Shown here piece by piece: positions 1,430 through 19,811 of a DNA stretch of 54,431 nucleotides; the stretch's first letter is position 1; every line of letters begins with the position of its first letter. The notes below the pieces were generated by a model that made no database searches, was not told the DNA's origin, and worked only from the letters and a program-made list of their open reading frames with translations. Source of the DNA: Lachnospiraceae bacterium (GTDB taxonomy: Bacteria > Bacillota > Negativicutes > Veillonellales > Megasphaeraceae); assembly GCA_963657835.1 (NCBI GenBank), contig CAVKOP010000001.1, forward strand, positions 1-54,431. Direction: 5' to 3'. The position numbers were made by a program, and so were the translations under genes.

Positions 1430-1550
1430 AACGAAAGTCCTTTTTGCCGGCTCATTTGCCCGATAAGCTGAGTAAAGGCGTCATTCGTATGGCGCCTTTC
1501 TTAATAAAGAATATTATGTATTAAGAAATATTTTTAGGAGGAATACTCTC

Positions 1551-2696: not shown

Positions 2697-2760
2697 TAAC
2701 TTTGTTACCTCCTTTAAAGGTAAAAATATATATTTGTAGTACAAGTTTAACATGTTGCTC

Positions 2761-2810
2761 AAAGAGAACCCCGGCTGCAATTGGACACTGCAGCCGGGGT
2801 TTTCTCTTTT
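2761..2810. terminator. Intrinsic terminator, probably bidirectional
   Basis: aaccccggctgca / tgcagccggggtt stem with T tract, between convergent genes. Confidence 0.85.
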
Positions 2811-2841
2811 TATATTGTTTAATTTTTCCTAGTCAGGGGAT

Positions 2842-3042
2842 TTAATGAAATACTCGCCAAAGTCCGATTATCAAAAAGAGTGTGACGATGCAGAAACTGA
2901 TGATACGGGTTTTGGAAAAGATTTTGGGATCGTTTTGTATATTTTTGGGCGGCGGTGGCGGCGGTACGACTTGTTTGGTGCCGCAGATGGGGCAGACGAG
3001 TACGCCGTCCCGCAGTTCGGTGCCGCAAGTTGGGCAAATCAT
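2842..3042 (-). CDS. Small zinc-ribbon membrane protein (66 aa)
   Basis: CPTC...CPIC zinc ribbon, PPPPPP linker, C-terminal hydrophobic helix; AGGAG RBS and near-consensus promoter upstream. Confidence 0.8.
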   Translation of the reverse strand: MICPTCGTELRDGVLVCPICGTKQVVPPPPPPKNIQNDPKIFSKTRIISFCIVTLFLIIGLWRVFH

Positions 3043-3078
3043 GATATCATCTCCTAATCGCTATCCTAGTATACTTCC

Positions 3079-3107
3079 ATCATAGGGAGATTCGTGCTGT
3101 CTGTCAA
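3079..3107 (-). promoter_or_regulatory. Sigma70/SigA promoter for the zinc-ribbon gene
   Basis: TTGACA-N17-TATGAT on the minus strand. Confidence 0.75.
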
Positions 3108-3356
3108 GGTTGCGGCAGAATGTGTTCGTGAAAAGGCAGCGTACGCTTGACTGCGGCAGATTAACGAAGCGTATGTGGTGGTTGAAACGCCGGGAAAAAC
3201 GGTATCCGTATGTATATCCTTTGTTAATTGGGGCATAATTATATAGTTTTTGCCAAAAAATGATTGTATAAAACGTAAAAATAGCATAAAATAAAAACTT
3301 AGAGTTTGCATATAATGATAAAGAAACGTTTTGTGAAAGGAGATAATAAAAAGTAT

Positions 3357-4622
3357 ATGAAAAAATTAGGATTGAGTACGCAAATACTCATCGGCTTGCT
3401 GTTGGGTGCGCTTGTCGGTTATTTGTTTCCGGATTTTGGGGATAAGCTGAAACCGATTGGCGATGCGTTTTTGCGTATGATTAAAATGATTGTCGTGCCG
3501 TTGATTTTTAGTACCCTCGTCATGGGAATTGCCGGTACGGGTGATTTTAAAAAATTGGGACGACTGGGCGGCAAGGCGATTATTTGGTTTGAATTTGCGA
3601 CGACGATTGCCTTGGCGATTGGGCTGCTGTTTATGAATTTGGCGCAGCCCGGTGTCGGCGTGACGCTGACGGCTTCGTCGGCCGGTGCGGCCGATGTGGC
3701 TAATGCGAGTCAGCATAGTGTCGATTTGGTACAGTATGCCGTCCATATTGTACCGACGAATATTGTAGATGCGGCTGCCCGCCAAGATATGCTGCAGATT
3801 ATTTTCTTTGCCTGCTTTTTTGGCGTAGGCGTAGCTCATATTGGCGAATCGGGCCAAAAGATTGTGGACCTCTGTCACAGTGTAGCTGAAGCTATGTTTA
3901 AGGTAACCGGCTATGTCATGCATGTCGCGCCTATTGGCGTATTTGCTATGATTGCCTATACCGTAGGTAGCTATGGCATTGCCATGCTGATTCCATTGGG
4001 GAAACTGATTGTTTCCGTAGCCGCAGCGACGCTCGTGTTTGTATGCATCATTGCGTTAATTGCCAGCTTGCTGACACGCATCAATTTTTTCCATGTCTTA
4101 AAGGCTATTAAAGATATTTTGTTCTTGGCCTTTTCTACAGCGAGCAGTGAAGCTGCCCTGCCGCTGGCAATGGAACGCCTTTCTCAACTGGGCATTCGAA
4201 AGAATATCGTCACTTTTGTCATGCCGACGGGCTATTCGTTCAACTTGGACGGTTCTACCTTGTACAGTTCCGCAGGTATTTTGTTCATTGCCCAGCTGTA
4301 CGGTATCGATATGTCCATTGAACAGCAAATTCTCGTCATGCTGACGCTGATGCTTTCTACAAAAGGGATTGCCGGTGTGCCCGGTGCAGGCATTATTGTC
4401 GTAGCGGCAACCGCGGCGGCGTTTAACCTGCCGACAGACGGCGTAGCCATCTTGCTGGGGATTGACAGATTGCTGGATATGATTCGCACGGTCTGCAACG
4501 TTTGCGGCAACTGCATGGCAACGGTCGTTGTAGCCCGCTGGGAAGGGGAACTTCCTAAAGATAGGTTTAATGCCGCTTATAAAGATTTGATGAGCGGCAA
4601 GAAGCTGGAAAACGATTTTTAG
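3357..4622 (+). CDS. Dicarboxylate/amino acid:cation symporter (DAACS, GltP/GltT-like)
   Basis: FLRMIKMIVVPLIF, AFSTASSEAALP, PTGYSFNLDGS and GIDRLLDMIRT motifs; start moved to ATG 3357 behind AAGGAG. Confidence 0.9.
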   Translation: MKKLGLSTQILIGLLLGALVGYLFPDFGDKLKPIGDAFLRMIKMIVVPLIFSTLVMGIAGTGDFKKLGRLGGKAIIWFEFATTIALAIGLLFMNLAQPGVGVTLTASSAGAADVANASQHSVDLVQYAVHIVPTNIVDAAARQDMLQIIFFACFFGVGVAHIGESGQKIVDLCHSVAEAMFKVTGYVMHVAPIGVFAMIAYTVGSYGIAMLIPLGKLIVSVAAATLVFVCIIALIASLLTRINFFHVLKAIKDILFLAFSTASSEAALPLAMERLSQLGIRKNIVTFVMPTGYSFNLDGSTLYSSAGILFIAQLYGIDMSIEQQILVMLTLMLSTKGIAGVPGAGIIVVAATAAAFNLPTDGVAILLGIDRLLDMIRTVCNVCGNCMATVVVARWEGELPKDRFNAAYKDLMSGKKLENDF

Positions 4623-4669: not shown

Positions 4670-4742
4670 ATATATCTGATATAATATATAGTATAAAAAA
4701 GTGATTTGAAAGGATGTTCCTGACAAAAAACTTTATAGATCA

Positions 4743-4843
4743 GCCGTCGTACTTGCTTGCAAAGAAAGTATCTGCGCAAATGAGGCGAAAGCACATACTA
4801 AAATAGTAGGTGAGCTCTGTGCTTTTGCATGGAGCTTTTTATT
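4743..4843 (+). promoter_or_regulatory. Candidate attenuator / riboswitch-like leader of the nif-like-hyp-hydF operon
   Basis: Terminator agctctgtgc(4813-4822)/gcatggagct(4827-4836)+TTTTT is mutually exclusive with gcgaaagcaca(4785-4795)/tgtgcttttgc(4818-4828); further upstream hairpin at 4743-4786. Confidence 0.55.
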
Positions 4844-4871
4844 ATAGACAAAAATGAAGAGGAGACCGTGT

Positions 4872-5120
4872 ATGGAAACAAGATTAGCTGTCATCGGCAT
4901 TGTCATTGGCAAACGGGAAGCAGCGGCCAAACTCAACGAACTGCTTCATGAATATGGACCGTATATTATCGGACGGATGGGCGTCCCGTATCAAAACAAA
5001 GAGGTTAGCGTGATCAGCGTCATCATTGACGCGCCGCAGGATGCTATCAACGCGTTGACAGGAAAGCTGGGCATGCTTCCTGACGTGAGCGCCAAAACGA
5101 TGTATCCGCCGCTGCCGTAA
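4872..5120 (+). CDS. TM1266-family putative iron-only hydrogenase system regulator (ACT-like fold)
   Basis: METRLAVIGIVI...LNELLHEY...IIGRMGVPY...INALTGKLGMLP matches the family as I recall it; GAGGAG RBS. Confidence 0.85.
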   Translation: METRLAVIGIVIGKREAAAKLNELLHEYGPYIIGRMGVPYQNKEVSVISVIIDAPQDAINALTGKLGMLPDVSAKTMYPPLP

Positions 5121-5132
5121 TAGGAGGATGTT

Positions 5133-5894
5133 ATGTTAAAACTTGCAATTTACGGCAAAGGCGGCATTGGCAAATCGACGATGACGAGTAATTTGGCGGC
5201 TGCCTTTGCGTATTTAGGAAAACGGGTCATCCAAATAGGCTGCGACCCGAAAGCGGATTCGACGTTTAATCTGCTGAACGGTAAGCCTGTCGAACCGGTG
5301 ATGAATTACCTGCGTGAACATGATGAAGATCCGCAGCGGATAGAAGATATTTCCCGTATTGGCTACGGCGGCGTTCTTTGCATTGAAACGGGCGGGCCGA
5401 CGCCGGGACTGGGCTGTGCCGGCCGCGGCATTATTGCTACGTTTGCTTTACTGGAAGATTTGGGGCTGTTCGAAACGTATCAGCCCGATGTCGTGTTGTA
5501 CGATGTGTTGGGCGATGTCGTCTGCGGCGGCTTTGCGGCGCCGATTCGGGAAGGATATGCCGAAGAAGTGCTGATTGTCACATCGGGCGAAAAAATGGCC
5601 TTGTATGCGGCTAACAACATTTATACAGCTGTACAGAATTTTGCAGACCGAAGCTATGCGACCGTGCGGGGGATTCTCTTCAACCGCCGCAATATTCCCG
5701 ACGAAGAAGCTAAGGTACGGGCTTTTGCCGAAAAAAATCAGCTTCCCATTATCGGAGACATTCCGCGAAGCGACGCGATTAATCAGTTTGAAGAAGAAGG
5801 AAAGACTGTCATTGAAGGCAACCCGGATTTGCCGATTAGCCAGACGTTTTTGCAGTTGGCGGCTTCCTTGCTGCAGGATAGGAAAAAGATATGA
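5133..5894 (+). CDS. Nitrogenase iron-protein-like ATPase/reductase, copy 1 (NifH/BchL/CfbC family)
   Basis: [11 protein letters not shown]-loop, [22 protein letters not shown] and [11 protein letters not shown]; both [4Fe-4S] Cys present. Confidence 0.92.
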
Positions 5895-7195
5895 CACACG
5901 AAAAGAAACCGTATTCTATTACCATCAGCCAATTGGTGGAGCTGGGCCGTGAACACATTCCGGCAGAGCTCATTTCCTCGACCCATTTGATTTATAACTC
6001 GCCGGCTGCCTTGGCGTTTAATTCACCGGGGGCGCAGGGGTTTGGCGTCAAGCGGGCCGGACTGGCGATTCCCGGTTCGGTGATGCTGCTTGTCGGTCCG
6101 GGATGCTGTGGCCGCAATACGACCATCCTCAGTGAAATGGGCGGCTACAGCGACCGATTTTTCTTTTACATTATGGATGAAACGGATATTGTCACAGGAC
6201 GGCATTTGCGCAATATCCCGCAGGCTGTAGAAGAAATCGTAGATTCCCTGCCTGCTGCGCCGTCTGTCGTCATGATTTGCATGACTTGTGCAGACGCGCT
6301 TTTGGGAACAGACATGGAACGTGTCTGCCGTAAGGCGGAAGCAAAAGTTGGTCTGCCTGTCGTTCCCTGTTATATGTACGCGCTGACGCGGGAAGGACGC
6401 AAACCGCCTATGGTAGATGTCCGGCGTGCCGTGTATTCGCTGCTGAAAAAACAGAAGCGGCAAAAACGGACCGTCAATTTGCTGGGATATTTTGCGCCGC
6501 TTCAGGCAGACTGTGAATTATACGACGTACTGCGCCAACTAGGCATTACTACAATTAACGAAATATCCCGCTGTCAAACGTTTGAAGAATATCAGGGCAT
6601 GGCTAAGGCTAATTTCAACGTGATTCTCAACCCGGAAGCCCGGCTGGCAGCGCAGCACATGGAAAAGAATCTGGGCATACCGAGTATTGAGCTGACGCGG
6701 CTGTATCAAGTCGGACAGATTCATAGGCAGTATCAGGCATTAGGACAAGTATTGCAGACGACGATTGATGATTCCCTTTGGTATGAAAAAGCAAAAACAG
6801 AAGTTGCTCGCATACGAAACCAATACAGCGGCACGACCGTGGCCATTGGGGAAATGCAGAACGGCAATGCCTTTGAAATGGCGTTGGCACTGACGCGGTA
6901 CGGGTTCTGCGTTCGGGAAATATATGCCAACCTGACAGGTGATGATTTTGTCTATCTTCGCCATTTGCAGACACTCAGCCCGGATACCCGCGTGTATTCG
7001 AATTTGTCGCCGTCTATGCTGTATTATGACGGCAGCCAGCATCCTGTGGATGTCACAATTGGCAAGGATGCGGCGTACTATCATGATGATAGCGCCCATG
7101 TTTTTTGGGATGAAGAAATCCAGCCGTTTGGCTATGCCGGCGTGCAGGCGCTGCTGCAAAAAATGGATGCGGCATTGCAAGGGAGGAACAGCTGA
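5891..7195 (+). CDS. Nitrogenase component-1-like subunit, alpha-like copy 1
   Basis: [36 protein letters not shown] and ANFNVILNP...MEKNLGIP fit the oxidoreductase nitrogenase component 1 fold; 4-nt overlap with the nifH-like gene. Confidence 0.85.
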
Positions 7196-8226
7196 TGAAA
7201 GGATTGTGGAAATATATATCGCCGTTTGCCCCGGACCAGTCGGGCGCGGCGGCTGTCCTCTACGGCTTGGGCGGTATCGTGGTCATTTGTGATGCCGGCG
7301 GCTGTGCCGGCAATATCTGCGGTTTTGATGAGCCGCGTTGGTTCAGCGGCAGAAAAAGCGCCGTATTTAGTGCGGGCCTGCGAGATATGGATGCTATTTT
7401 AGGCCGGGATGACAGGCTCATCGCCAAACTTTGTGATGCAGCGCAGACCATCGATGCTTCTTTTGCCGCCATTGTCGGCACGCCGGTGCCTTCCGTGATT
7501 GGCACGGATTATCGGGCACTGCAGCGAATGGCAGAAAAAAAGCTGGACATGCCCATCCTGACAATCGATACGACGGGAATGAAGCTGTATGACAAAGGCA
7601 TTGAAAAAGCCTATCTGGCTTTGCTGCGGCAGTTTACCCGGACGGATGATGCGCCGGAAAAAGACACAGTCGGCGTGCTGGGTGCGGTGCCTTTGGACTT
7701 GATGCATGCTGACGGCACGGAAGCGGTTTGTCAGGAACTGGTAGAAGACGGCTGGCAGCAGATTTTGCTTTATGATGATTTGGATGATTTCATTCATGCC
7801 GGCAAAGCGGATATGAATATTGTCGTGTCGCCGGCAGGATTAAAAGCGGCGCAGTATTTGCAGAAAACCATAGGCACGCCGTATGAACAGCGGTATTTTG
7901 GCTTGTCTCGCGTCGTGCCGGATAATTCTATCTTTGCCGGGAAAAATGTTCTTATCGTCCATCAGCAAACAGCGGCTCATGCTATGCGTGCGTTGGCAGA
8001 AGAAGCAGGCGCAGCGTATGTAACGACAGCGACCTGGTTTATGACGGAACAAACGAATCATGATGAAGGTGATATATCCTTGCGGGAAGAAGATGAGTTT
8101 CGCAGATTGGCTGACAACAATGATTTTGACATTATTTTGGGAGATGCCTATTTCCAAAAAGCACTGCCTCATTTTCAAGGCATGTATGTCGATTTTCCTC
8201 ATTTTGCCGTGTCTGGGAGGGGATAG
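7195..8226 (+). CDS. Nitrogenase component-1-like subunit, beta-like copy 1
   Basis: PDQSGA, DAGGCAGN, DMDAILG, GTPVPSVIGTD and NIVVSPAGLKAAQYL...GTPY; 1-nt stop/start overlap. Confidence 0.82.
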   Translation: MKGLWKYISPFAPDQSGAAAVLYGLGGIVVICDAGGCAGNICGFDEPRWFSGRKSAVFSAGLRDMDAILGRDDRLIAKLCDAAQTIDASFAAIVGTPVPSVIGTDYRALQRMAEKKLDMPILTIDTTGMKLYDKGIEKAYLALLRQFTRTDDAPEKDTVGVLGAVPLDLMHADGTEAVCQELVEDGWQQILLYDDLDDFIHAGKADMNIVVSPAGLKAAQYLQKTIGTPYEQRYFGLSRVVPDNSIFAGKNVLIVHQQTAAHAMRALAEEAGAAYVTTATWFMTEQTNHDEGDISLREEDEFRRLADNNDFDIILGDAYFQKALPHFQGMYVDFPHFAVSGRG

Positions 8227-8229
8227 CCT

Positions 8230-10527
8230 ATGAAAACGGAAGTCATTCGGCTTTTTGGCATCGTCCAGGGCGTCGGTTTTCGCCCCTTTGTCAGCCGAAC
8301 GGCTAAGACCTGCCGCATATATGGCAGCGTATGCAATAAAGGATCTTATGTCGAAGTGATTGCCCAAGGGGATGATGCGGCACGGCGGCAGTTTCATCAT
8401 GACCTGATTGCGAAAGCCCCGGCTCGTTCCAGCATCCTCAACGTATCGACTGCCATAGAAGACAGAAAGCCGTATACTGATTTTACGATTATAGAGAGTG
8501 CCAAGGAAAAAGGAGCCGTGTTTGTTTCGCCGGACATTGCCATTTGCGAGGAATGCAAAAAGGAATTATTTGATAAGACAAACCGGCGGTATCTGCATCC
8601 CTTCATCAACTGTACGGCATGCGGCCCGCGACTGACGATTCTCGATGCCATGCCCTATGACCGGGAACGGACGAGCATGGGGGAATTTCCCATGTGTGAT
8701 GCCTGCCATGAAGAATATACTCATCCGGAAACACGGCGGTACGACGCGCAGCCTGTCTGCTGTAATGACTGCGGCCCGGAGGTATATCTTTTGGGAAGAA
8801 AAGAACGGCGCAGAGAAGCTATCTGCAAGGCCCGAGAGGTGATTTGCCATGGCGGGATTATTGCCGTGAAGGGCATCGGCGGCTTTCACCTTTGCTGCGA
8901 TGCGGCCAATGATGACGCTGTACAACGGCTGCGTCAGCTGAAGCACCGTCCCGTCAAGCCGTTTGCCGTCATGATGAAAGACTTGGCCGCAGCCAAACGG
9001 GAATGTGTCGTTTCCCATGAACAGGCAGCACTGCTGGACGGACATGAAAAGCCGATTATGTTGCTGCGCAAACGAGCGCATACGTCGCTGTCTTCCTATA
9101 TTGCACCGGATAATCCCAACGTAGGGGTCATGCTGCCCTATACGCCGCTTCATTTGCTGCTGTTTACGTACGACGACGATTGGGTTATGCCGGACGCACT
9201 GGTCATGACCAGTGCCAATGCATCCGGTGCGCCGATTTGTCGTACCGATGAGGATGTCAAAACAGAAGTACTGGGGATGTGCGATCTTGTCTTGTCGCAT
9301 ACTCGTAAAATCCGGCTGCGTGCCGATGATTCGGTACTGGATTTTTATAACGGCAAACCGTATATGATACGGCGTTCCCGCGGCTATGCACCGCTGCCTT
9401 TTTTTGTAGGTACAGAAACGGGCAGACAGGTACTGGCCATTGGCGGTGAACTAAAAAACACGTTTTGTATCGGCAAAGACAATCTATATTACTTGTCCCC
9501 GTATATTGGCGATATGGCAGATATACGGACCGTTACGGCACTGCGTGAGTCGGTGACCCGTATGGAAACGTTGTTGGAAGCTTCACCATCTGTCGTAGCC
9601 TGTGACAGTCATCCCAGATACAATACGACAATAACAGCGCATGAATTAGGGCTTCCCGTCATAGAAGTACAGCATCATTATGCCCATGTTTTATCTTGTA
9701 TGGCAGAAAACGACTGCATCGATAGACCCGTTATTGGCGTATCGCTGGATGGAACCGGCTATGGAACTGATGAAACGATTTGGGGCGGCGAAATACTGTT
9801 GTGTGATATACACGGGTTTCGGCGCTGCGGCTCGATTGCGCCGTTTTGGCAGCGCGGCGGCGATGCATCGTCTAAAGAAGGATGGCGCATTGCTGTCAGC
9901 ATGATTGCGCAACTTGTGAAAGAACCGTCTGACATAGCAGCTGTCGTTCAGCAGCTGCAGCTTTGCGACGAGGTTAATTTGCAGGCTCAGCTGTTTATGG
10001 CTGCTAATCAGATTAACAGCGTTCGTTCTACCAGTACCGGACGGCTCTTTGATGCCGTAAGTGCCATTTTGGGGCTGTGCCGGGCGTCTACCTTTGAAGG
10101 GGAAGGTGCCATGAGGCTGCAATTTGCGGCAGAACGCGGCAAGGATACGGCAGAAGTGCTTTCGCTGGATATAGGCGCGGGGCAGATGCAGGACGCGCGC
10201 TATATACTGCCTACGGATAGATTGGTACAGGAACTGCTGCAGCGGCGTTTGCAGGGAGAAGACGTATCCCTGCTGGCGTATCAGTTTCACGATGCCTTGG
10301 CAAAGATGCTGGTGCAGGCCTGTGAACGGGTACGGGAAGAAACGCACTGCCAAACTGTAGCACTCAGCGGCGGCGTATTTCAAAACACGCTGCTGCTGCG
10401 TTTATGTGATGATAGGCTGCAAGGACGGGAATTTACGGTACTGAAGCATAGCTTGGTGCCGCCCAATGACGGCGGCATTGCCTTGGGACAGGCTGTATAT
10501 GCTATGTATAACAAAGGAGGAATTTGA
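8230..10527 (+). CDS. hypF: Carbamoyltransferase HypF
   Basis: Acylphosphatase GIVQGVGFRPFV, two zinc fingers (CEEC..CTACGPR; CDAC..CNDCGP), YrdC KGIGGFHL, Kae1 QHHYAH and PPNDGGIALGQ. Confidence 0.96.
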   Translation: MKTEVIRLFGIVQGVGFRPFVSRTAKTCRIYGSVCNKGSYVEVIAQGDDAARRQFHHDLIAKAPARSSILNVSTAIEDRKPYTDFTIIESAKEKGAVFVSPDIAICEECKKELFDKTNRRYLHPFINCTACGPRLTILDAMPYDRERTSMGEFPMCDACHEEYTHPETRRYDAQPVCCNDCGPEVYLLGRKERRREAICKAREVICHGGIIAVKGIGGFHLCCDAANDDAVQRLRQLKHRPVKPFAVMMKDLAAAKRECVVSHEQAALLDGHEKPIMLLRKRAHTSLSSYIAPDNPNVGVMLPYTPLHLLLFTYDDDWVMPDALVMTSANASGAPICRTDEDVKTEVLGMCDLVLSHTRKIRLRADDSVLDFYNGKPYMIRRSRGYAPLPFFVGTETGRQVLAIGGELKNTFCIGKDNLYYLSPYIGDMADIRTVTALRESVTRMETLLEASPSVVACDSHPRYNTTITAHELGLPVIEVQHHYAHVLSCMAENDCIDRPVIGVSLDGTGYGTDETIWGGEILLCDIHGFRRCGSIAPFWQRGGDASSKEGWRIAVSMIAQLVKEPSDIAAVVQQLQLCDEVNLQAQLFMAANQINSVRSTSTGRLFDAVSAILGLCRASTFEGEGAMRLQFAAERGKDTAEVLSLDIGAGQMQDARYILPTDRLVQELLQRRLQGEDVSLLAYQFHDALAKMLVQACERVREETHCQTVALSGGVFQNTLLLRLCDDRLQGREFTVLKHSLVPPNDGGIALGQAVYAMYNKGGI

Positions 10528-10528
10528 T

Positions 10529-10735
10529 ATGTGCGTAGGATTACCGGCACGGGTAGTAACGATAAAAAACGGTATGGCATTGGTGGATGCATCGGGAGCC
10601 AAGCGGGAAGTATCCGCTGAACTGATGGACCATTTGGATCCCGGTGACTATGTCATGGTACATGCAGGCATGGCGATTGCCAAAATAACCGATGACGATA
10701 CAGAGGAAACGGATGACATCTTGGAGGATTTATGA
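10529..10735 (+). CDS. hypC: Hydrogenase maturation chaperone HypC/HupF
   Basis: True start ATG 10529 (GGAGG RBS) gives the MCVGLP N-terminus; GDYVMVHAGMAI. Confidence 0.95.
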   Translation: MCVGLPARVVTIKNGMALVDASGAKREVSAELMDHLDPGDYVMVHAGMAIAKITDDDTEETDDILEDL

Positions 10736-11793
10736 TGGAAATGAAGAAAAAACGGACGGCACTGGAAATTATTCGACAGTATGACGGGCCGCCGATTCGC
10801 ATCATGGAAGTCTGCGGCACCCATACACATGAAATTTTCCGCCTTGGCATCCGACAGATTCTGCCGCCGCAAGTGGACTTGATTTCCGGGCCGGGGTGTC
10901 CTGTCTGCGTGACGCCGGTTGATTTTATTGATGAAGCTGTCTGGCTGGCACTGCACAAGGGCGTGACAATTTGCACCTTTGGTGATTTGGTTCGTGTTCC
11001 CGGCTCAGAAATGAGTTTGGCTGGCGCACGCAGCCAGGGCGCCCATATAGAAGTCGTTTATGCGCCGCTGGATGCTTTGACCTATGCGAAAGAACACCGT
11101 GATGAAGATGTTGTCTTTTTATCTGTCGGCTTTGAAACGACGACGCCGGCAAGTTGTCTGGCTGTCAAAAAAGCAAGAGAAGAAGGCATTGCGAATTTTT
11201 CTATCCTTACAGCCAATAAAACGATGCCGCAGGCTTATGAAGTCCTGAAAGGCAGTGCCGATGTGTTTTTATATCCCGGTCATGTAGAAGCTGTCGTGGG
11301 AACCAGACATTGCGAGGCGTTGGTACAGGAAGGTATATCCGGCGTAGTAGCTGGCTTTACGGCCAAAGAGCTGCTGACCGCCCTGGCTGTTATTATGGTA
11401 AAATTTCCCCAGGGCAAACCGTTTTTTAAAAATTGCTATCCCCGTGTGGTTACGGCAGCGGGAAGCCTGGCAGGACAACAGCTGATGGCTGAAGTGATGG
11501 AACCGTGCGATTCGCAGTGGCGCGGCCTGGGCATGATACGGCAGTCCGGCATGCGGCTGCAGTCGGCGTATGCGGCGTATGATGCCCGCAAAAAATATGA
11601 GGTTCCTTGTATGCATGGGCATGCCAATCCGGCCTGCCGCTGCGGCGATGTGCTGCAGGGAAAATGCAGACCGTCAGACTGCCCTGTGTTTGGCAAAGGC
11701 TGTACACCGGAGCATCCTGTAGGAGCCTGCATGGTATCTCATGAAGGAGCCTGCTCGGCATATTATCAATATGGAGGAATTTTACATGAATGA
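10732..11793 (+). CDS. hypD: Hydrogenase maturation protein HypD
   Basis: MEVCGTHTH, GPGCPVC, GFETT, PGHV and the C-terminal CRC...CPVFGKGCTP...GACMVSHEGAC. Confidence 0.96.
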   Translation: MMEMKKKRTALEIIRQYDGPPIRIMEVCGTHTHEIFRLGIRQILPPQVDLISGPGCPVCVTPVDFIDEAVWLALHKGVTICTFGDLVRVPGSEMSLAGARSQGAHIEVVYAPLDALTYAKEHRDEDVVFLSVGFETTTPASCLAVKKAREEGIANFSILTANKTMPQAYEVLKGSADVFLYPGHVEAVVGTRHCEALVQEGISGVVAGFTAKELLTALAVIMVKFPQGKPFFKNCYPRVVTAAGSLAGQQLMAEVMEPCDSQWRGLGMIRQSGMRLQSAYAAYDARKKYEVPCMHGHANPACRCGDVLQGKCRPSDCPVFGKGCTPEHPVGACMVSHEGACSAYYQYGGILHE

Positions 11794-12790
11794 TGTAGTA
11801 ACACTGGCGCATGGCGCCGGCGGCAGACAGACTGCCGAATTAATCGATACGGTATTTAAAGCACATTTTGCCAATCCTCAGTTTACTGGTGATGATGCGG
11901 CAGTTCTGCCTTTTGGCGATACCCGTTTGGCATTTACTACGGACGGCTTCATCGTGTCGCCGCCGGAATTTCCCGGAGGCAATATTGGCAAGCTGAGTAT
12001 TTGCGGTACTGTGAACGATTTGGCTTGTATGGGAGCTCAGCCCCTGTATCTGTCCTGTGCGTTTGTCATTGAAGAAGGCTTTCCGCTGGCTAAAGTAGAA
12101 GAATATGCGGCAGCCATGGAAAAAACAGCAGCGGAAGCAGGTGTGCGCATTGTAGCCGGTGATACCAAAGTTGCCGGCAAGGGGCAAGTAGACCATCTGT
12201 TTATTACGACGACGGGCATTGGCCGTATTATGGACGGCGTGCATACATCAGGAGCCCAGGCCAAGCCGGGCGATGCTGTCATTGTGACCGGCGACGTAGG
12301 ACGCCATGGCTGTACGATACTGCTGGCCCGTAATCAGTTTGGCATTGATGCCAATGTCACGAGTGACTGTGCGCCTTTATGGGGAACCGTTCAGTCCATG
12401 TTGGAAACAACGAAGGACATTCACGTCATTCGAGATGCGACCCGCGGCGGCGTCGGCACGGTTTTGTATGAAATCGCCGGACAGAGCCAGGTTGGCATTC
12501 GGCTGGACAGTCAGGCCGTTCCTGTAGATTCATCGGTGCGCGGCGTATGCGGCATGTTGGGACTGGAACCACTGTATTTAGCGTGCGAAGGCCGTTTGGT
12601 CGTCTTTGCGCCGAAAGATAAGGCCCAGGCTATTGTCGATACACTGCATAAAGGACCCTATTCAAAACAGGCGGCCATTATTGGCGAAGTCACGGCGGAA
12701 CAGCCGGGCCGCGTTATTGTACGGACTGAAATTGGCGCAAAAACGTTGCTGCCGCCGCCGGGCGGTGAATTGCTGCCCCGTATTTGTTAG
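11786..12790 (+). CDS. hypE: Carbamoyl dehydratase HypE
   Basis: LAHGAGG, DDAA, GTVNDL, GDTKV, RDATRGG and C-terminal PRIC; start ATG 11786 after GGAGG. Confidence 0.96.
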   Translation: MNDVVTLAHGAGGRQTAELIDTVFKAHFANPQFTGDDAAVLPFGDTRLAFTTDGFIVSPPEFPGGNIGKLSICGTVNDLACMGAQPLYLSCAFVIEEGFPLAKVEEYAAAMEKTAAEAGVRIVAGDTKVAGKGQVDHLFITTTGIGRIMDGVHTSGAQAKPGDAVIVTGDVGRHGCTILLARNQFGIDANVTSDCAPLWGTVQSMLETTKDIHVIRDATRGGVGTVLYEIAGQSQVGIRLDSQAVPVDSSVRGVCGMLGLEPLYLACEGRLVVFAPKDKAQAIVDTLHKGPYSKQAAIIGEVTAEQPGRVIVRTEIGAKTLLPPPGGELLPRIC

Positions 12791-12818
12791 AAACTAGCGG
12801 TTGGAAAGGTGGGATTGG

Positions 12819-13574
12819 ATGATAAAAATAGCTGTTTATGGAAAAGGCGGCATTGGCAAATCGACGACGGTTTCCAATATGGCGGCTGCCCTGGCAGAAA
12901 ACGGGCTGCAGGTCATGCAGATTGGCTGCGACCCGAAAGCCGACTCGACAGTCAGTCTGCGCGGCGGCCAGCCGGTACAAACGGTACTCGATTTGATGCG
13001 GCAGCAAAAGAAGGCATTTTCTCTGGAAGACATTGTGGCTGTCGGCTATCGCAATATTGTCTGTGTAGAGGCCGGCGGCCCGGCACCGGGAATGGGCTGT
13101 GCCGGACGTGGCATTATTGCCGCTTTGGAAACGTTAAAAGAAAAAGGCGCCTATGAAGTATATCGGCCTGATGTGGTGTTTTATGATGTATTGGGAGATG
13201 TGGTCTGCGGCGGTTTTTCTATGCCGATGCGAAAGGGATATGCTGACGCTGTTTTTATCGTCACGTCCGGAGAAAATATGGCACTGCACGCAGCAGCCAA
13301 CATTGCCATGGCGGTAGATCACTTTAAACAGCGGAGCTATGCGCGTCTTGGCGGCCTGATTTTAAATCGTCGCCATGTACCTCGTGAAGAAGAAAAAGTA
13401 CAAGAATTGGCAGCGGATATTCACGCGTCGGTTATCGGTGCATTGAACCGCAGTGATGTCGTTTTAAAAGCGGAAGAACTGGGAAAAACGGTTTTGGAAG
13501 CCTTTCCGGATAGTCCCATGGCGGACGAATATCGAACGCTGGCGCAGGCTGTCTATCAGGAAGCAATGAGGTGA
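12819..13574 (+). CDS. Nitrogenase iron-protein-like ATPase/reductase, copy 2
   Basis: [32 protein letters not shown] and [14 protein letters not shown]. Confidence 0.92.
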
Positions 13575-13578
13575 TGCT

Positions 13579-14910
13579 ATGCTGCAGCAAATGGGAAAGC
13601 AAACAAAAGAAACAAAGGCTGTCATACCGATAAAGGATGCTTCATTTCCGGCATTCTTTTATGATGGACTGCAGTATTCACCGCCTGCCAGAGGAACATG
13701 GAATATTGTGCATACGAATATGCTGGTCCCCGAATCCCACCAGATTTATATTTGCGCGTTAGGCTGTCTGCGCGGCGTTGTTTTGACTGCTGCTGAAATG
13801 GGCGCCATGAATCGGTTTTCGTCTATCGTCGTTGAAGAACATCATTTATATGACGGCACCATGGAAGACATGATCGTGCAGGCTGTAGGAGAGATTTTAA
13901 ACGGCCTGCGTCCTTATGTGCCCAGGGCTTGTTTTGTCTATCCGTCCTGCATTCATCATTTTATGGGATGCGATATGGATGACGTGTATCGGCGGCTGCG
14001 GGAAACTTATACGCAGACGCAATTTGTCGCTTGCTGGATGGACCCCATCCGGCGGGAATCCGATTTGACGGCAGAAATGCGGACACGGCGGCAGTTGTAC
14101 AGCCTGCTGCAAAAAACGGCCCTGCGTCCCGGCGATGTCAATATTGTTGGCAGTAATCTGGCTGTTCAGAAAGAGTGTGAACTCCTGTCTCTGCTGCAGC
14201 ATAACGGTATTGCCGTACATCAGCTGCCAGCCTGTGACACCTATGAAGCGTATGAAGCGATGGCTGCCAGTAGGTTGAATATCGGGCAGGAACCGCTGGC
14301 TAAAGGATGTTTGACGGATATGAAAGAACGGCTGGGACAAGAATCGTTATATATATCCAGTACTTGGGATATGGAAGAGATAGAAAAAAATTTGCAGGCT
14401 GTGGCTTCGTGCCTGCATATAGCATGCCCTTCGTATGCCGCAGAAAAAAAACAGTGTGAAAAGGCGTTGGCGCAGGCACGGCTTTGTTTGGGAGCAATGC
14501 CGATTGCCATTGATTATACGGCTGTAATGCGTCCCTTCAGCTTGGCCTGCTTGCTGCTAAAGCATGGCTTTTTGGTAGAACGAATCTATGCGGATGGGGC
14601 CAACCCGGAAGATGAAGCGGACTTTTACTGGATACAGTCGCACTATCCGCAGCTGCAGCTGTATGCAACGCGGCATGCCGATATGCGCTGTCTGGCCCGT
14701 ACGACGGAAGGGCCTATGCTGGCTATAGGGCAAAAAGCAGCGTATTTTACAGGCACCAGGCATTTTGTCAATATCGTAGAAGGCGGCGGCCTGCGTGATT
14801 ATGCCGGTATTTTACGGCTGACAGCGCTGCTGCAGGAAGCCTATCATACAGAAAAAGAAGCCAAGCCGTATATCAGCCGCAAAGGATGGGGGTGCGCTTC
14901 ATGTTTATGA
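13579..14910 (+). CDS. Nitrogenase component-1-like subunit, alpha-like copy 2
   Basis: ICALGCLRG, YPSCIHHFMGCD and VNIVG; AIGQKAAYF parallels TIGKDAAYY of copy 1. Confidence 0.8.
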   Translation: MLQQMGKQTKETKAVIPIKDASFPAFFYDGLQYSPPARGTWNIVHTNMLVPESHQIYICALGCLRGVVLTAAEMGAMNRFSSIVVEEHHLYDGTMEDMIVQAVGEILNGLRPYVPRACFVYPSCIHHFMGCDMDDVYRRLRETYTQTQFVACWMDPIRRESDLTAEMRTRRQLYSLLQKTALRPGDVNIVGSNLAVQKECELLSLLQHNGIAVHQLPACDTYEAYEAMAASRLNIGQEPLAKGCLTDMKERLGQESLYISSTWDMEEIEKNLQAVASCLHIACPSYAAEKKQCEKALAQARLCLGAMPIAIDYTAVMRPFSLACLLLKHGFLVERIYADGANPEDEADFYWIQSHYPQLQLYATRHADMRCLARTTEGPMLAIGQKAAYFTGTRHFVNIVEGGGLRDYAGILRLTALLQEAYHTEKEAKPYISRKGWGCASCL

Positions 14911-16118
14911 GAGAAGCCGTAAGCCGCATTGCAACGTATTCTGCGGACACATTTGGCGTCTGCTCGGCGTTGTTTGAACTGGGCGGCATGATTGTCATTC
15001 ATGACCCGTCGGGATGCAATTCGACGTATACGACGCATGATGAGCCGCGCTGGTATGAAAGAGACAGTTTAATTTTTATTTCCGGCCTGACTGAAATGGA
15101 TGCCCTCATGGGAAATGATGAAAAATTGGTTCATGATGTTATCGAAGGAGCTCGGCAGTTTTCCCCTCGTTTTATCGTCTTGTTGTGTACGCCTGTGCCC
15201 TTGATGATGGGGACTGATTTTCCGGCCTTGGCACAGGAAATTGAAGATGCCACAGGCATTCCGACGTTTGCAGGTACGACAAACAGCATGGAAACCTACG
15301 AAATAGGGATTTCTTGGGCATTGCAGCTGCTGGCAAACCACATCGTCAAAGAGAATCCTATTTCAGCCTCCGGTCATTTTTGCTGTTCTTGGCAGCCGAC
15401 CTTTGCGTCACAAAGTAAAAAGGCGATTCCAGTTAATGTCATAGGGATGACGCCTCTTGATTTTGCGTATCAGGGCAGTGAAAAAACGATACGGCGGTTT
15501 CTTGCGAAACAGGGATTTTCTGTGCGTAGTATTTGGGCTATGGGCAGCCGCCTGGAAGAAATTGAAATGGCAGGACAGGCTAAAGTCAATCTAGTCGTTT
15601 CCTATGGGGGGCAGGAAGCGGCAAACGTAATGAAAGAGCGGTTTGGCCAGCCGTATGTAGTCGGGGTGCCTATCGGATCGTTTCAAGACACGGTGCGTCA
15701 GGCATTGCTGCAGGCCGTACATACAGGAGAAAATCAGTATCCGTGTTTGCAGCGGACTAGTGCCGAGGACGCGAACCTTGCCATTATTGGTGAAAGTGTG
15801 TATGCGGCATCCTTGGCAGCTGCGTTGGAAATGGCTGTCGGCGTGCCTGTGCAGGTGCTGTGCCCGTTGGAACCGGCTGAAAAGACACTGCAGGAAACAG
15901 ACTGCCGCATTGCGTCCGAACAGGAACTGCAGGCGTGCTTGAGGGAAAAAGACATCATTATAGCTGACCCATTATATCAGCCTGTTTGTCCTGCTCGGAG
16001 CCGTGTAGTACCGTTGGGACACGAAGCATTTTCCGGCCGCATATACCAGCATGAAATTCCTGATTTGATGAAGCCGGAAATATTTGCTGAATTTGTAAAA
16101 CAAGTAAAAGGGGTGTAA
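14901..16118 (+). CDS. Nitrogenase component-1-like subunit, beta-like copy 2
   Basis: ADTFGV, HDPSGCNSTY, DEPRW, EMDALMG and CTPVPLMMGTD; start could be 14886, 14901 or 14907. Confidence 0.82.
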   Translation: MFMREAVSRIATYSADTFGVCSALFELGGMIVIHDPSGCNSTYTTHDEPRWYERDSLIFISGLTEMDALMGNDEKLVHDVIEGARQFSPRFIVLLCTPVPLMMGTDFPALAQEIEDATGIPTFAGTTNSMETYEIGISWALQLLANHIVKENPISASGHFCCSWQPTFASQSKKAIPVNVIGMTPLDFAYQGSEKTIRRFLAKQGFSVRSIWAMGSRLEEIEMAGQAKVNLVVSYGGQEAANVMKERFGQPYVVGVPIGSFQDTVRQALLQAVHTGENQYPCLQRTSAEDANLAIIGESVYAASLAAALEMAVGVPVQVLCPLEPAEKTLQETDCRIASEQELQACLREKDIIIADPLYQPVCPARSRVVPLGHEAFSGRIYQHEIPDLMKPEIFAEFVKQVKGV

Positions 16119-16123
16119 CGCAT

Positions 16124-17323
16124 ATGGGATTCAATGATACGCCGTCAGGGGAACGGATTCATATTGGCTTTTTTGGACGCCGCAATGCTGGCAAGTCCAG
16201 TGTCGTCAACGCAGTTACCGGACAAAGTCTGGCTATTGTATCCGATACGAAAGGAACGACGACCGACCCGGTTTATAAAGCGATGGAACTGCTGCCGTTG
16301 GGGCCGGTAGTGATTATCGATACGCCGGGGTTTGATGATGTCGGCTCGTTAGGGGCCCTGCGCGTGCAAAAGACCAAAGAGGTGCTGCATAAAACAGACA
16401 TTGCCGTACTGGTCATTGATGCAGCAGAGGGCATGACGCAGAGCGATACGGATATACTGCAGCTTATTCGGGAACGGCAAATCCCGTATTTAATTGTCTA
16501 TAATAAAGCGGACTGCCTTGCCAGTCATGCCAAGGCGGCCCAGAATGAAATATATGTCAGCGCATTGTCGAAGCAGGGCATTACAGCACTAAAAGAACGA
16601 TTGGCCCGGCTGAAGCCCCAAGAAACATCTGTGCCGCTTGTCAGTGATTTAATTCATGCCGGTGATTTTGTCGTACTTGTCGTGCCTATCGACTCGGCAG
16701 CTCCCAAGGGCCGGCTTATCTTGCCGCAGCAGCAGACGATTCGAGACGTGTTGGATGCAGACTGCACGGCTGTCGTCGTTAAAGAAAATGAGCTGCGCCG
16801 TACGTTAGCTCAACTGGGAAAACAGCCGGCCTTAGTTATTACGGACAGCCAGGCCTTTGCCAGTGTATCTAACGATACGCCGCAGGATATTTTATTGACG
16901 TCATTCTCTATTTTGATGGCCCGACATAAGGGATTTTTAGAAGAAGCCGTTCATGGCGTAACTGCGCTGGACCGGCTGCAGGACGGCGATACCGTTCTCA
17001 TTTCGGAAGGCTGCACACATCATCGGCAGTGTGAAGATATTGGTACGGTAAAACTGCCTCGTTGGATTCATGAATATACAGGGAAAACGATTCAAATTGA
17101 AACGACAAGCGGTCGGGAATTTCCGGTAGACCTGTCTTCCTATGCCATGGTCATTCACTGCGGCGGCTGCATGCTCAATGGTCGGGAAATGCAGTTTCGC
17201 ATGCAGCATGCTCATGCCCAGGGCATTCCGATTACCAATTACGGCATCACCATTGCTTATATGAAGGGCATTTTAAAACGGAGTTTACGTGTATTTCCTT
17301 CATTGGCTGCGTTGATTCCCTGA
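16124..17323 (+). CDS. hydF: [FeFe]-hydrogenase H-cluster maturation GTPase HydF
   Basis: GRRNAGKSS, GTTTDPV, DTPG and NKAD GTPase motifs; APKGRLILPQ, TDSQAF; cluster motif CTHH...HCGGC. Confidence 0.95.
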   Translation: MGFNDTPSGERIHIGFFGRRNAGKSSVVNAVTGQSLAIVSDTKGTTTDPVYKAMELLPLGPVVIIDTPGFDDVGSLGALRVQKTKEVLHKTDIAVLVIDAAEGMTQSDTDILQLIRERQIPYLIVYNKADCLASHAKAAQNEIYVSALSKQGITALKERLARLKPQETSVPLVSDLIHAGDFVVLVVPIDSAAPKGRLILPQQQTIRDVLDADCTAVVVKENELRRTLAQLGKQPALVITDSQAFASVSNDTPQDILLTSFSILMARHKGFLEEAVHGVTALDRLQDGDTVLISEGCTHHRQCEDIGTVKLPRWIHEYTGKTIQIETTSGREFPVDLSSYAMVIHCGGCMLNGREMQFRMQHAHAQGIPITNYGITIAYMKGILKRSLRVFPSLAALIP

Positions 17324-17548: not shown

Positions 17549-17595
17549 TTTGTATTTGTTTTATATTTTTCTGAATGATAAAGGAGTCTTATACC

Positions 17596-17784
17596 ATGAC
17601 TAAGAGCATACGTTTTGTTGTTTTAGCTATTTTTGCTGCTTTTTTTGCAATCGGTGCAGTAGGTGCTATGAATGCCAATGTAAACAGTAAATCAGCTCCA
17701 GCCAAGACGCCGGTAAAAATAACAAAAGTGTCTTCTGTAGATATGAATTCGTACTTACGTGTTTCTCCGGAACAAATGAAATAA
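17596..17784 (+). CDS. Small exported or membrane-anchored hypothetical protein (62 aa)
   Basis: AAGGAG RBS; MTKSIR plus a hydrophobic stretch resembling a signal peptide; own promoter. Confidence 0.65.
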   Translation: MTKSIRFVVLAIFAAFFAIGAVGAMNANVNSKSAPAKTPVKITKVSSVDMNSYLRVSPEQMK

Positions 17785-17860
17785 AAAGTAACTGTATATT
17801 GCAACAAAATACGGCAGGTACTATAAAAATATAAAGAAAATAAATTTGGTTTTCTAAACA

Positions 17861-17946
17861 TTGAAAGATGAGAAATCACATGGTATGATATGATTATGAT
17901 AAAAACGACGATGGTGTCTTTGACAGATGCTGTCGTCGTTTTTTAT
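17861..17946 (+). promoter_or_regulatory. SigA promoter plus inverted repeat / terminator-like hairpin (module copy B)
   Basis: TTGAAA-N17-TATGAT (17861-17889) with TG extension; then aaaaacgacgatggtgtct/agatgctgtcgtcgttttt. Confidence 0.6.
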
Positions 17947-18018
17947 CTATAGGAACTGCAAGCCTGCCAATCAGCAGGTTGTCGTATAGGGTGTTTGGGC
18001 AGGAAAGGAGCTATAGAC

Positions 18019-18261
18019 ATGGACGTACATAAAGTTAAACTGGTAGTGGTAAAATCGGGTTGTGCCTTATATAAAGCAGGCGATGAAATTGTATTTGACG
18101 GACCGGTTATTCAAAAAGAAAAGAGCGGCGCGTTGTGCATGACGGCTTTACAAGCACTGTATCCGTACGTGTTTGCGGCACGGCAGGGGGCCGTTTGGAA
18201 GCCGCTTATACAGTGTCCGGACTGCGAAGAAACCGTACTTTTTAACGTCATGGAACAATAA
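18019..18261 (+). CDS. TIGR04076-family small Cys-containing protein
   Basis: GC..YKAGDEI, LCMTALQALYPY and QCPD..TVLF pattern; AAGGAG RBS. Confidence 0.65.
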   Translation: MDVHKVKLVVVKSGCALYKAGDEIVFDGPVIQKEKSGALCMTALQALYPYVFAARQGAVWKPLIQCPDCEETVLFNVMEQ

Positions 18262-18414
18262 ATAGGACGGCATGTGGCTGTGTTGGGACAGCGTTTTCTG
18301 TATAGATGTAAAAATAACATATGACAGTGTAGGCAGAAACTTTGACCGAAGGGCCTTCTTGTGGGACAATATGACTATACATACGATAGTAAGTTAGACA
18401 TACGAGAGGCAGTT

Positions 18415-19704
18415 ATGGTCAAAGTTTCTTTACATTTAGAACAAAGAATAAAATTATCGCAAATGCAGCGGCTTACGATTCAGATGATGACGCTCCATGG
18501 ACAAGACTTGCAGGATTTTTTGCGTGAACAAGTCACGGATAATCCGCTGTTGGACATTCGCTATCGCGATGTCAGACAGCATGCCGGCAAAGACTATTCA
18601 GAAAAGCCGATAGAGGCTGCCTGCAGTCGAGGTGATTCATTGGAAGAAAAACTGATGAAAGAGCTGCGGGTGCAGACGGCGCCGAAAAAAGTTATGCTGG
18701 CAGCCGGGCTGGTCATTCAATCGTTGGATGAAAAAGGATTTTTCCAAGGAGATTTAGCTGCCATAGGTACGGCATACGGCTTGGGCTTGGCAGACATGGA
18801 ACAGGGACTGATACTAGTGCAGTCGTTTGAACCGGCAGGCATTGCCGCGCGTTCTATTCGCGAAGCCCTGCTGATTCAGACGCGGCGGCGGCAGGATGCA
18901 CCGGCAGGAACGGAAGAACTGTTGGAACTGTATTACGATGACTTTCTTCACGGACGCTGGCAGCGGCTGGAAAAAGAGATGAATGCATCTGCTGGTGCGA
19001 TACGCCGTATTCGTGCGTTTTTGAAAAAACTTTCACTGCAGCCGGCACCGCAGGCAGAAACTGAAACGGAATATGTGCGGGCAGATGTAGAAATTTTTTG
19101 TGATGCTCAGGGCCATCTGCAGGTTCGTTCACTGGAAGAACTGCCGGAAGTGTTTTTTAGAGATGACTTATACGCAGTGTATAAAAAAGATGGAGATAAA
19201 GCGACTCAGACGTTTATCCGCCGGGCAAAGCGGCAGTTTTTAGATTTACAGACGGCCTTAGCGTATCGCTGGCAGTCTATTTTTACAGTCATGCAGTATA
19301 TTTTGGATCGGCAGCAAAATTATTTTTTGCATGATGAAAACCTGCGGCCGTTGACACAAGCTGCCATTGCCAAAGGAACGGGTCTTAGTACAGCTACTGT
19401 AAGCCGCGTATGCCGAAATCGGTATGCATTGTTCAAACAACGTATATATCCGGTACAAAGTTTTTTGGCCCATTCCTACCGGGACGATTCCCGCGCGGAC
19501 GGTCTCACGTCCGATCAAGCGATTATGCAGGAGATGCTCCGCCTGATTGCCGAAGAAGATAGTCAGCATCCGTGGTCAGACCAGGAAATTGCAGTATATT
19601 TCAGTCAAAAAAATATTCATATTGCGAGAAGAACGGTGACAAAATTTCGTTTAAAGATGAATATTCCTAATAGTAATATGCGTAAACGTCTAAAAAACTC
19701 ATAG
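18415..19704 (+). CDS. rpoN: RNA polymerase sigma-54 factor
   Basis: Q/L-rich region I, DNPLL, SLDEKGF, QSFEPAGIAARS, LRPLT...TVSR, SDQEI and RpoN box ARRTVTKFR. Confidence 0.9.
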   Translation: MVKVSLHLEQRIKLSQMQRLTIQMMTLHGQDLQDFLREQVTDNPLLDIRYRDVRQHAGKDYSEKPIEAACSRGDSLEEKLMKELRVQTAPKKVMLAAGLVIQSLDEKGFFQGDLAAIGTAYGLGLADMEQGLILVQSFEPAGIAARSIREALLIQTRRRQDAPAGTEELLELYYDDFLHGRWQRLEKEMNASAGAIRRIRAFLKKLSLQPAPQAETETEYVRADVEIFCDAQGHLQVRSLEELPEVFFRDDLYAVYKKDGDKATQTFIRRAKRQFLDLQTALAYRWQSIFTVMQYILDRQQNYFLHDENLRPLTQAAIAKGTGLSTATVSRVCRNRYALFKQRIYPVQSFLAHSYRDDSRADGLTSDQAIMQEMLRLIAEEDSQHPWSDQEIAVYFSQKNIHIARRTVTKFRLKMNIPNSNMRKRLKNS

Positions 19705-19811
19705 CCTTTGTTATAAATTTCACTATCACTTTCTAACATAATGCGTTATACTATATATGTAAATCTATTTCATGAAATGTGGGCTTTATGATTTGGAGGA
19801 GGTTTTTTAGA

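Follow-up and report, generated by a model that had tools for sequence, protein, structure and literature searches.

We analysed a window of 54,431 nucleotides (nt) at the start of contig CAVKOP010000001.1, from a genome deposited as a Lachnospiraceae bacterium and assigned by GTDB to the Megasphaeraceae. Twelve intact open reading frames (ORFs) are packed on the + strand within positions 4872..17323 of this window, with intergenic gaps of -8 to +31 nt, in the order TM1266, H1, D1, K1, hypF, hypC, hypD, hypE, H2, D2, K2 and hydF (Table 1). The initial annotation had read this run as a TM1266-family gene and an intact hydF bracketing hypFCDE and two NifHDK-like sets. It had proposed that the ten bracketed genes (hereafter, the module) take the place of HydG, the enzyme regarded as supplying carbon monoxide (CO) and cyanide in vivo to every H-cluster of [FeFe]-hydrogenases. 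Profile scores and motifs confirm the gene content, and the twelve-ORF layout stands with the start of H2 corrected to 12819. TM1266, HypF, HypC, HypD, HypE and HydF all score above their curated cut-offs. Furthermore, HypD retains its CGTH, GPGCPVC, GFETT and PGHV motifs and C-terminal Cys motifs, and HydF combines GTPase motifs with CTH(H) (position 297) and HCGGC (position 345). The two PF00142 and four PF00148 proteins fall below the NifH, CfbC, BchL/X, NifD/E and Bch cut-offs. The identities between corresponding subunits (53% for H1/H2, 26% for both D1/D2 and K1/K2) mark the H1/D1/K1 (trio 1) and H2/D2/K2 (trio 2) sets as old paralogues.

Table 1. Genes and leader RNA of the operon (window positions; aa, amino acids).
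Feature	Position	Strand	Evidence
TM1266-family putative [FeFe]-hydrogenase system regulator, 82 aa	4872..5120	+	TIGR03959 115 bits (cut-off 60.8); PF21699
H1, NifH-like ATP-dependent reductase, 253 aa	5133..5894	+	PF00142; intact P-loop and both cluster-Cys motifs
D1, nitrogenase-like alpha subunit, 434 aa	5891..7195	+	PF00148; conserved C72, C73, C130, C133
K1, nitrogenase-like beta subunit, 343 aa	7195..8226	+	PF00148; conserved D14, C37, C42
HypF carbamoyltransferase, 765 aa, domains complete	8230..10527	+	TIGR00143 758.7 bits
HypC chaperone, 68 aa	10529..10735	+	TIGR00074 74 bits; Cys2 and His45 invariant (alignment of 28)
HypD scaffold, 353 aa	10732..11793	+	TIGR00075 382 bits
HypE carbamoyl dehydratase, 334 aa, C-terminus PRIC	11786..12790	+	TIGR02124 411 bits
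H2, NifH-like reductase, ~251 aa	12819..13574	+	PF00142; 53% identity to H1
D2, nitrogenase-like alpha subunit, 443 aa	13579..14910	+	PF00148; 26% identity to D1
K2, nitrogenase-like beta subunit, 403 aa (frame open from 14886)	14907..16118	+	PF00148; 26% identity to K1
HydF H-cluster maturation GTPase, 399 aa	16124..17323	+	TIGR03918 576 bits; sole copy found in genome
Structured leader RNA (hairpin pair whose internal loops match, followed by a terminator)	4694..4845	+	covariation in 17 leaders

Both hydG and hydE had been reported missing from the operon interior, and neither gene lies within the operon. However, the genome (272 contigs) encodes a HydE on a different contig (326 bits against a cut-off of 254.6) that aligns over its full length to Thermotoga maritima HydE (243 bits); genome-wide, only hydG is missing. 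The top HydG match in this 86% complete assembly reaches 199.8 bits against a cut-off of 312. We rejected this 409-aa protein as a HydG candidate and read it as ThiH, which follows thiF- and thiG-like genes, named from their apparent sequence similarity, in a thiF-thiG-thiH run. Five [FeFe]-hydrogenase (PF02906) matches are also present. The HydA at locus L006 has the TSCCPAW and EVMACPGGCIGG motifs; the pattern used for the middle motif gave no match. At the same 86% completeness, no [NiFe]-hydrogenase large subunit, HypA or HypB scored above cut-off, and neither a second hyp set nor a second nitrogenase-like set was found.

The distribution of the module is largely complementary to that of hydG. 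Among 261 genomes sampled across the phylum (our own included, all others at least 90% complete), HydG was present in 127 and HydF in 135, and every HydG-positive genome was also HydF-positive. D1 matched nine genomes, but none of the 127 HydG-positive genomes carries the D1 clade. The six genomes with D1 at 50% identity or more, ours among them, are all HydG-negative and all have D2. These six account for most of the eight HydF-positive, HydG-negative genomes; another (G163) has trio 2, and no PF00148 gene is present in the eighth (G201, 90% complete). In the HydG-negative genome G163 (D1 match of 24%), trio 2 adjoins hydE and hydF. The matches in the HydG-positive genomes G168 (35%) and G125 (24%) belong to single H-D-K sets adjoining transporters; the 20 kb fetched around each set contains no hyp genes, and the G168 genome has no HypD. 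The G168 set (L018, 7718-10978), 35% identical to D1/K1, sits between sugar-transporter genes and is possibly a sister clade of different function.

The same pattern emerged within the Negativicutes. In a class sample of 221 genomes, HydF was found in 202, HydG in 162 and the D1 clade in 22. D1 was present in 1 of 160 genomes with both HydF and HydG versus 21 of 42 with HydF and no HydG. The single overlap (G404) has HydG coordinates identical to those of G269 and is probably the same genome. Within one genus (g3), eight genomes have HydG only and two have D1 only. In 10 of 15 class genomes, D1 matched weakly (21-29%); we set these matches aside as other nitrogenase-like sets, mostly linked to transporters. 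Further H-D-K sets of this kind occur with ATP-binding cassette (ABC) importers at L019 and L128-L137, some with TonB-dependent receptors.

An alignment search with D1 against GTDB genomes returned at least 594 related stretches, and the locus counts below refer to the best 80, many of which are cut by contig ends. They include Clostridium ljungdahlii, C. ragsdalei, C. carboxidivorans, C. drakei, Anaerobutyricum hallii, many Lachnospiraceae and Megasphaera, the last providing the nearest named loci (87-95% identity in D1). One locus (L096) with H1-D1 lies outside the Bacillota, its record bearing the title Flexilinea sp., through either transfer or a binning error. K1 accompanies D1 at 79 of the 80 loci, hypF at 76, hypD at 68, D2 at 53 and TM1266 at 48; hydF is found at 25, hydE at 2 and hydG at none, and 52 loci have hydF, hydE or TM1266. 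Whole-genome searches covered the carriers of 50 loci, the dropped ones being mostly near-duplicate Megasphaera and those ranked last. As the initial annotation anticipated, carriers co-occur with the remaining [FeFe] machinery: HydA matched in all 50 and HydE in 49 (48 above cut-off). The expected anti-correlation with HydG also held, with 46 carriers under the cut-off and four above it; 16 gave no HydG-profile match even at E 1e-25.

The nitrogenase-like proteins have a reduced set of cluster ligands. The four D1 cysteines in Table 1 are conserved in 72-73 of 73 sequences. Conserved residues in trio 2 are H45, C59, C63, C124 and a C-terminal CxxC in D2, and D14, H32, C37 and H44 in K2. D1 C133 aligns to a cluster Cys of NifE, and K2 C37 to that of NifN. 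Numbered as in nitrogenase, three ligand positions are retained per pair; of the nitrogenase cysteines, the first in the alpha subunit and both the first and the third in the beta subunit appear replaced. Such a set would suit a single [4Fe-4S] cluster at each pair's interface, with spare ligands near, rather than a P-cluster and FeMo-cofactor. Neither D1/K1 nor D2/K2 has the six P-cluster Cys and FeMo-cofactor ligands of nitrogenase. Judged by Cys and His conservation only, with no tree including Mar references, both pairs also lack the six conserved Cys and the Cys/His pair of methylthio-alkane reductase (group IV-C; PMC13753814).

Structural models are consistent with these assignments. The D1 model has a predicted local distance difference test (pLDDT) score of 89.9 and fold Z scores of 23-25 to BchB, NifK, NifEN and MarD. 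The K2 model (pLDDT 87.5) matches BchB with Z 34.1 (root-mean-square deviation 3.1, 362 aligned). Both are confident models that predict the fold of dark-operative protochlorophyllide oxidoreductase (DPOR) and nitrogenase. Thus, the PF00142 and PF00148 folds and the NifH-type partner place the window proteins in this superfamily, as in DPOR (BchLNB), NifH-NifEN, CfbCD and MarHDK, with which they share some cluster Cys. They differ from these systems in being only 14-19% identical to solved members, in the reduced Cys set and in scoring below family cut-offs: D1 reaches 68 bits against the NifE cut-off of 505 and 37 bits against 654 for NifD, and the BchN, BchB, BchY, CfbD, CfbC, BchL and BchX models all score far under cut-off. 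Tetrapyrrole, nifB and sulfur genes were not seen in the operon, although no genome-wide search for NifB was made. Residues of HypD, HypC and HypE that appeared operon-specific came from five comparators only and are not claimed.

We also identified variants of the operon among 80 metagenomic loci retrieved with D2, which contain hydE at 55, hydF at 50 and hydG at one. The commonest full layout, TM1266-hydF-hydE-H2-D2-K2-H1-D1-K1-hypFCDE (19 of 80, mostly near-copies from one gut lineage), brings all known maturases save HydG into a single run. A second variant, at seven of these loci and in G163, places trio 2 beside ABC importer parts of the iron-siderophore, haem or cobalamin class. TM1266, hydE or hydF is present wherever the contig extends, and Hyp and trio 1, whose place the importer takes, are absent. 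This importer variant (L012 of G163, 6582-15847; L159, L210, L217, L220, L221, L222 and L232) represents about four lineages, five of the seven loci being close kin. G163 is the only whole genome with it; HydG, HypD and the D1 clade were not found in that genome, which is 100% complete and has four HydA matches. At L012 and L210, the importer ATPase is fused to a TM1266 domain. D1 and K1 are naturally fused (791-941 aa) at nine loci (L015, L016, L081, L083, L085, L101, L138, L218 and L231), and hydE and hydF separate D1 from K1 at L087 and L095. Small ORFs also interrupt the order: one of 133 aa between K1 and hypF in one gut lineage (L161-L206), and one of 122 aa between hypE and H2 in several Clostridium loci (L065, L066 and L074).

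Part of this association has been noted before. Coprococcus catus and other Firmicutes have two linked NifHEN-like copies beside hydrogenase maturation genes, with two Cys in the alpha subunit and one in the beta, for which a role in active-site metallocluster assembly was considered possible (Dos Santos et al., 2012; PMC3464626). These pairs very likely belong to the family in our window. The accessible text of that study does not mention hydG, specify the hydrogenase type or offer a test. A 2022 survey did not find hydG in five of eight acetogens and reported hypCDEF without hypAB in five of eight, treating the two observations separately (PMC9431212). The accessible part of a review of group IV clades leaves hydrogenase unmentioned (PMC13753814). 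In a literature search that left subscription journals largely uncovered, we found no paper proposing replacement of HydG or linking the gene association with missing hydG. Data from C. autoethanogenum show that the module is expressed, with HypD, HypE, HypF and both NifH-like proteins quantified at near-HydE levels (PMC9040625). The main H2 oxidiser of this organism is an active, abundant [FeFe] enzyme, HytA-E (PMC9040625; PMC5861303).

From its gene content, its conservation and its distribution, which is largely complementary to that of hydG and tied to hydA, hydE and hydF, we propose that the operon takes over the role of HydG in maturing [FeFe]-hydrogenases, a reading to which we give a probability of about 0.7. 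None of the genomic tests run refuted it, and the support is genomic. Compared with the canonical HydEFG system, TM1266, HydF, HydE and HydA are present and intact, and some related operons have the order TM1266-hydF-hydE. The difference is that HydG is not found in most carriers, which instead have ten genes of two other cofactor systems. The ligands would then come from carbamoyl phosphate and some CO source rather than from tyrosine. HypF, HypC, HypD and HypE retain the catalytic motifs of the HypABCDEF pathway of [NiFe] maturation; HypA, HypB and the large subunit, however, are missing from our genome, and the operon HypD forms a separate group.

The chemistry of the known pathways suggests why both cofactor systems may be needed. 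HypF and HypE convert carbamoyl phosphate into cyanide, and HypC and HypD hold an Fe(CN)(CO) unit. Nitrogenase Fe proteins reduce CO2 to CO. The HypCDEF product is Fe(CN)2CO (PMC9431212), a ligand ratio that is wrong for the H-cluster, whereas the HydG product is Fe(CO)2(CN)(cysteinate) (PMC11256358). If the H-cluster needs two CO and one cyanide per iron and HydE accepts the latter complex, a Hyp-based substitute would therefore need a CO supply and a change in ligand ratio. Both would be reductive tasks fitting ATP-driven, low-potential reductases, and two trios could close the gap. Trio 1, which travels with Hyp, would most likely give CO or electrons for building the Fe-CO-CN unit. Trio 2, which is found without Hyp beside an importer, would most likely act downstream, resetting the ligands to a form acceptable to HydE; HydE and then HydF would act as usual. 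The initial annotation had the product loaded onto HydF, but it most likely goes first to HydE. A synthetic Complex B analogue fully substitutes for HydG in vitro when HydE and HydF are provided (PMC11256358). The division of labour is tentative and follows from co-segregation: trio 1 segregates with Hyp, and trio 2 with HydE and HydF, hence its downstream placement. Which trio makes CO, and from which source, we can only infer. Equally speculative is a two-module route in which Hyp and trio 1 make a small, transferable iron-carbonyl-cyanide complex that trio 2 tailors for HydE and that some species import.

Several observations weigh against replacement of HydG by the operon. Half of the HydF-positive, HydG-negative Negativicutes (21 of 42) have no module and, even at E 1e-10, gave only ThiH- and HydE-level scores for HydG. 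HydE was kept in the five checked and HydA in the four checked, and two of these genomes are single-contig. Therefore, hydG loss does not require the module, and these 21 genomes are the chief finding against strict one-for-one substitution. They possibly use a third route or scavenging; no third replacement system was seen around the 15 hydF loci and 14 hydE loci inspected, where the neighbours are aspA or housekeeping genes. Four carriers retain a full HydG, and no completeness figures accompany the 50 carrier genomes; our own assembly is itself incomplete. Locus L161 has hydG inside the operon, ahead of hydF, yet is 87% identical over 13.3 kb to a locus of the commonest layout, so that hydG-present and hydG-absent states alternate in close relatives. 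Related genomes in the samples are not independent, so that Fisher tests exaggerate the association and were not counted as support, and many of the 80 D2 loci are near-copies of one lineage. Motif-based HydG candidates have been proposed in acetogens, one of them in C. autoethanogenum (PMC9431212). In that species, the operon comprises ten adjacent genes, eight of which were called non-essential by transposon insertion under both conditions, as were hydE and hydF; one Fe-only hydrogenase gene was essential on CO (PMC9004356). These calls do not discriminate between the hypotheses.

The module-less genomes (G326, G336, G346, G354, G361, G372, G378, G384, G406, G429, G462, G466, G470, G473, G477, G483, G492, G495, G507, G513 and G518) include four with the order TM1266-aspA-hydF, one (G483) with two hydE genes and one (G361) whose hydF is split by a stop. 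In L161, the 5' part of hydF (within 1-2839) is more diverged, as if hydG had been gained or lost by recombination within hydF.

The presence of hyp genes raises the question of whether they simply mature a [NiFe]-hydrogenase, with incidental neighbours. Every Hyp motif is canonical, 11 of the 50 carriers have the large subunit (12 have HypA), and C. ljungdahlii ERI-2 (L125) encodes one without adjoining hyp genes. However, 36 of the 50 have neither large subunit nor HypA. We inspected six [NiFe] loci, two belonging to phylum-sample genomes and four to carriers; in five of them a separate, divergent hypCDE lies beside the large subunit, 31-47% identical to the window copies versus 60-99% for operon copies. 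In a quick HypD tree, whose groups were assigned by identity to the window and which is hence only partly independent of it, operon and [NiFe]-type HypD fall on opposite sides of one branch (34 vs 5 rows; Shimodaira-Hasegawa-like approximate likelihood ratio test support 95). The distribution thus largely refutes a [NiFe] role, which we regard as very improbable. An Fe(CN)(CO) cofactor built by Hyp for the nitrogenase-like proteins or another enzyme, with co-regulation explaining the tie to hyd genes, is a better contender, if an unlikely one. One D/K pair could then be a scaffold and the other an enzyme, as NifEN serves NifDK. Two diverged pairs do share one operon, their top PDB sequence matches are NifE, the conserved spare His, Asp and Cys could hold a further metal, and some carriers keep HydG. 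Such a cofactor leaves unexplained the specific loss of hydG while hydE, hydF and hydA are kept, as well as the hydE and hydF inside the operon, and the locus maps, in which unlabelled neighbours were not clustered, showed no substrate or catabolic gene that recurs.

Two further alternatives keep the link to the H-cluster. The module could bypass HydE as well as HydG if the reductases join a pair of Fe units with sulfur and pass a di-iron precursor straight onto HydF. The window operon has hydF and not hydE, synthetic Fe2(SH)2(CO)4(CN)2 requires HydF alone (PMC11256358), and reduction of Fe(II) to Fe(I) suits low-potential reductases. Retention of HydE in nearly all carriers and at most D2 loci, together with the full-length HydE of our genome, makes this bypass improbable. 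There is also a slim chance that an unrecognised radical S-adenosylmethionine enzyme (a divergent HydG or ThiH), or scavenged CO and cyanide, does the work of HydG and the module is accessory. HydF persists in the 21 module-less genomes, HydE and HydF without HydG give about 1% activation, and atypical radical enzymes of this type have been proposed as candidates (PMC9431212). This leaves the module's near-absence from HydG-positive genomes unexplained; moreover, the 16 carriers without a match at E 1e-25 offer no candidate, and the 200-bit match of our genome sits in a thiamine operon.

If the operon does replace HydG, industrial gas fermenters (C. ljungdahlii, C. ragsdalei and C. carboxidivorans) and common gut fermenters (Megasphaera, A. 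hallii and many Lachnospiraceae) would use other chemistry for their H-clusters. This would resolve both puzzles of the 2022 survey, acetogens without a clear hydG and hypCDEF without hypAB. It would also give a function to an orphan nitrogenase-like clade, join the [NiFe] and [FeFe] ligand pathways, provide a handle on the unsettled CO source in anaerobic Hyp chemistry and explain many 'nifH' annotations in gut genomes. The pathway would be a variant of known maturation, but what the nitrogenase-like enzymes do would be chemistry of a new kind: were the two-module route correct, these enzymes would make or exchange CO and cyanide ligands on iron. If the importer is read correctly, its presence would imply cross-feeding among gut bacteria, with an organometallic precursor of hydrogenase taken up by an ABC transporter dedicated to metal complexes.

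The operon is preceded by a structured leader RNA with a terminator hairpin (4812-4837) directly before TM1266, whose 5' arm could pair with the adjoining upstream sequence. Both sides changed in 12 of 19 pairs across the 17 leaders, a count that none of 500 shuffles and none of the slid controls reached, with the structure derived from the same alignment used for the count. No Rfam family matched at gathering score. The leader model found one copy per genome in three of five genomes searched, all of the genus of our own genome (Megasphaera), and one weak match outside it, before H1 in L054. These features make the leader a candidate attenuator, and our guess is that it is controlled through TM1266 binding. 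Further upstream (647-4622) lie genes for a crotonase, an acyl-CoA dehydrogenase and a dicarboxylate symporter. Downstream of the operon (17575-21158) are a small unannotated ORF of 69 aa, a TIGR04076 protein, a sigma-54 factor and a CoA-transferase.

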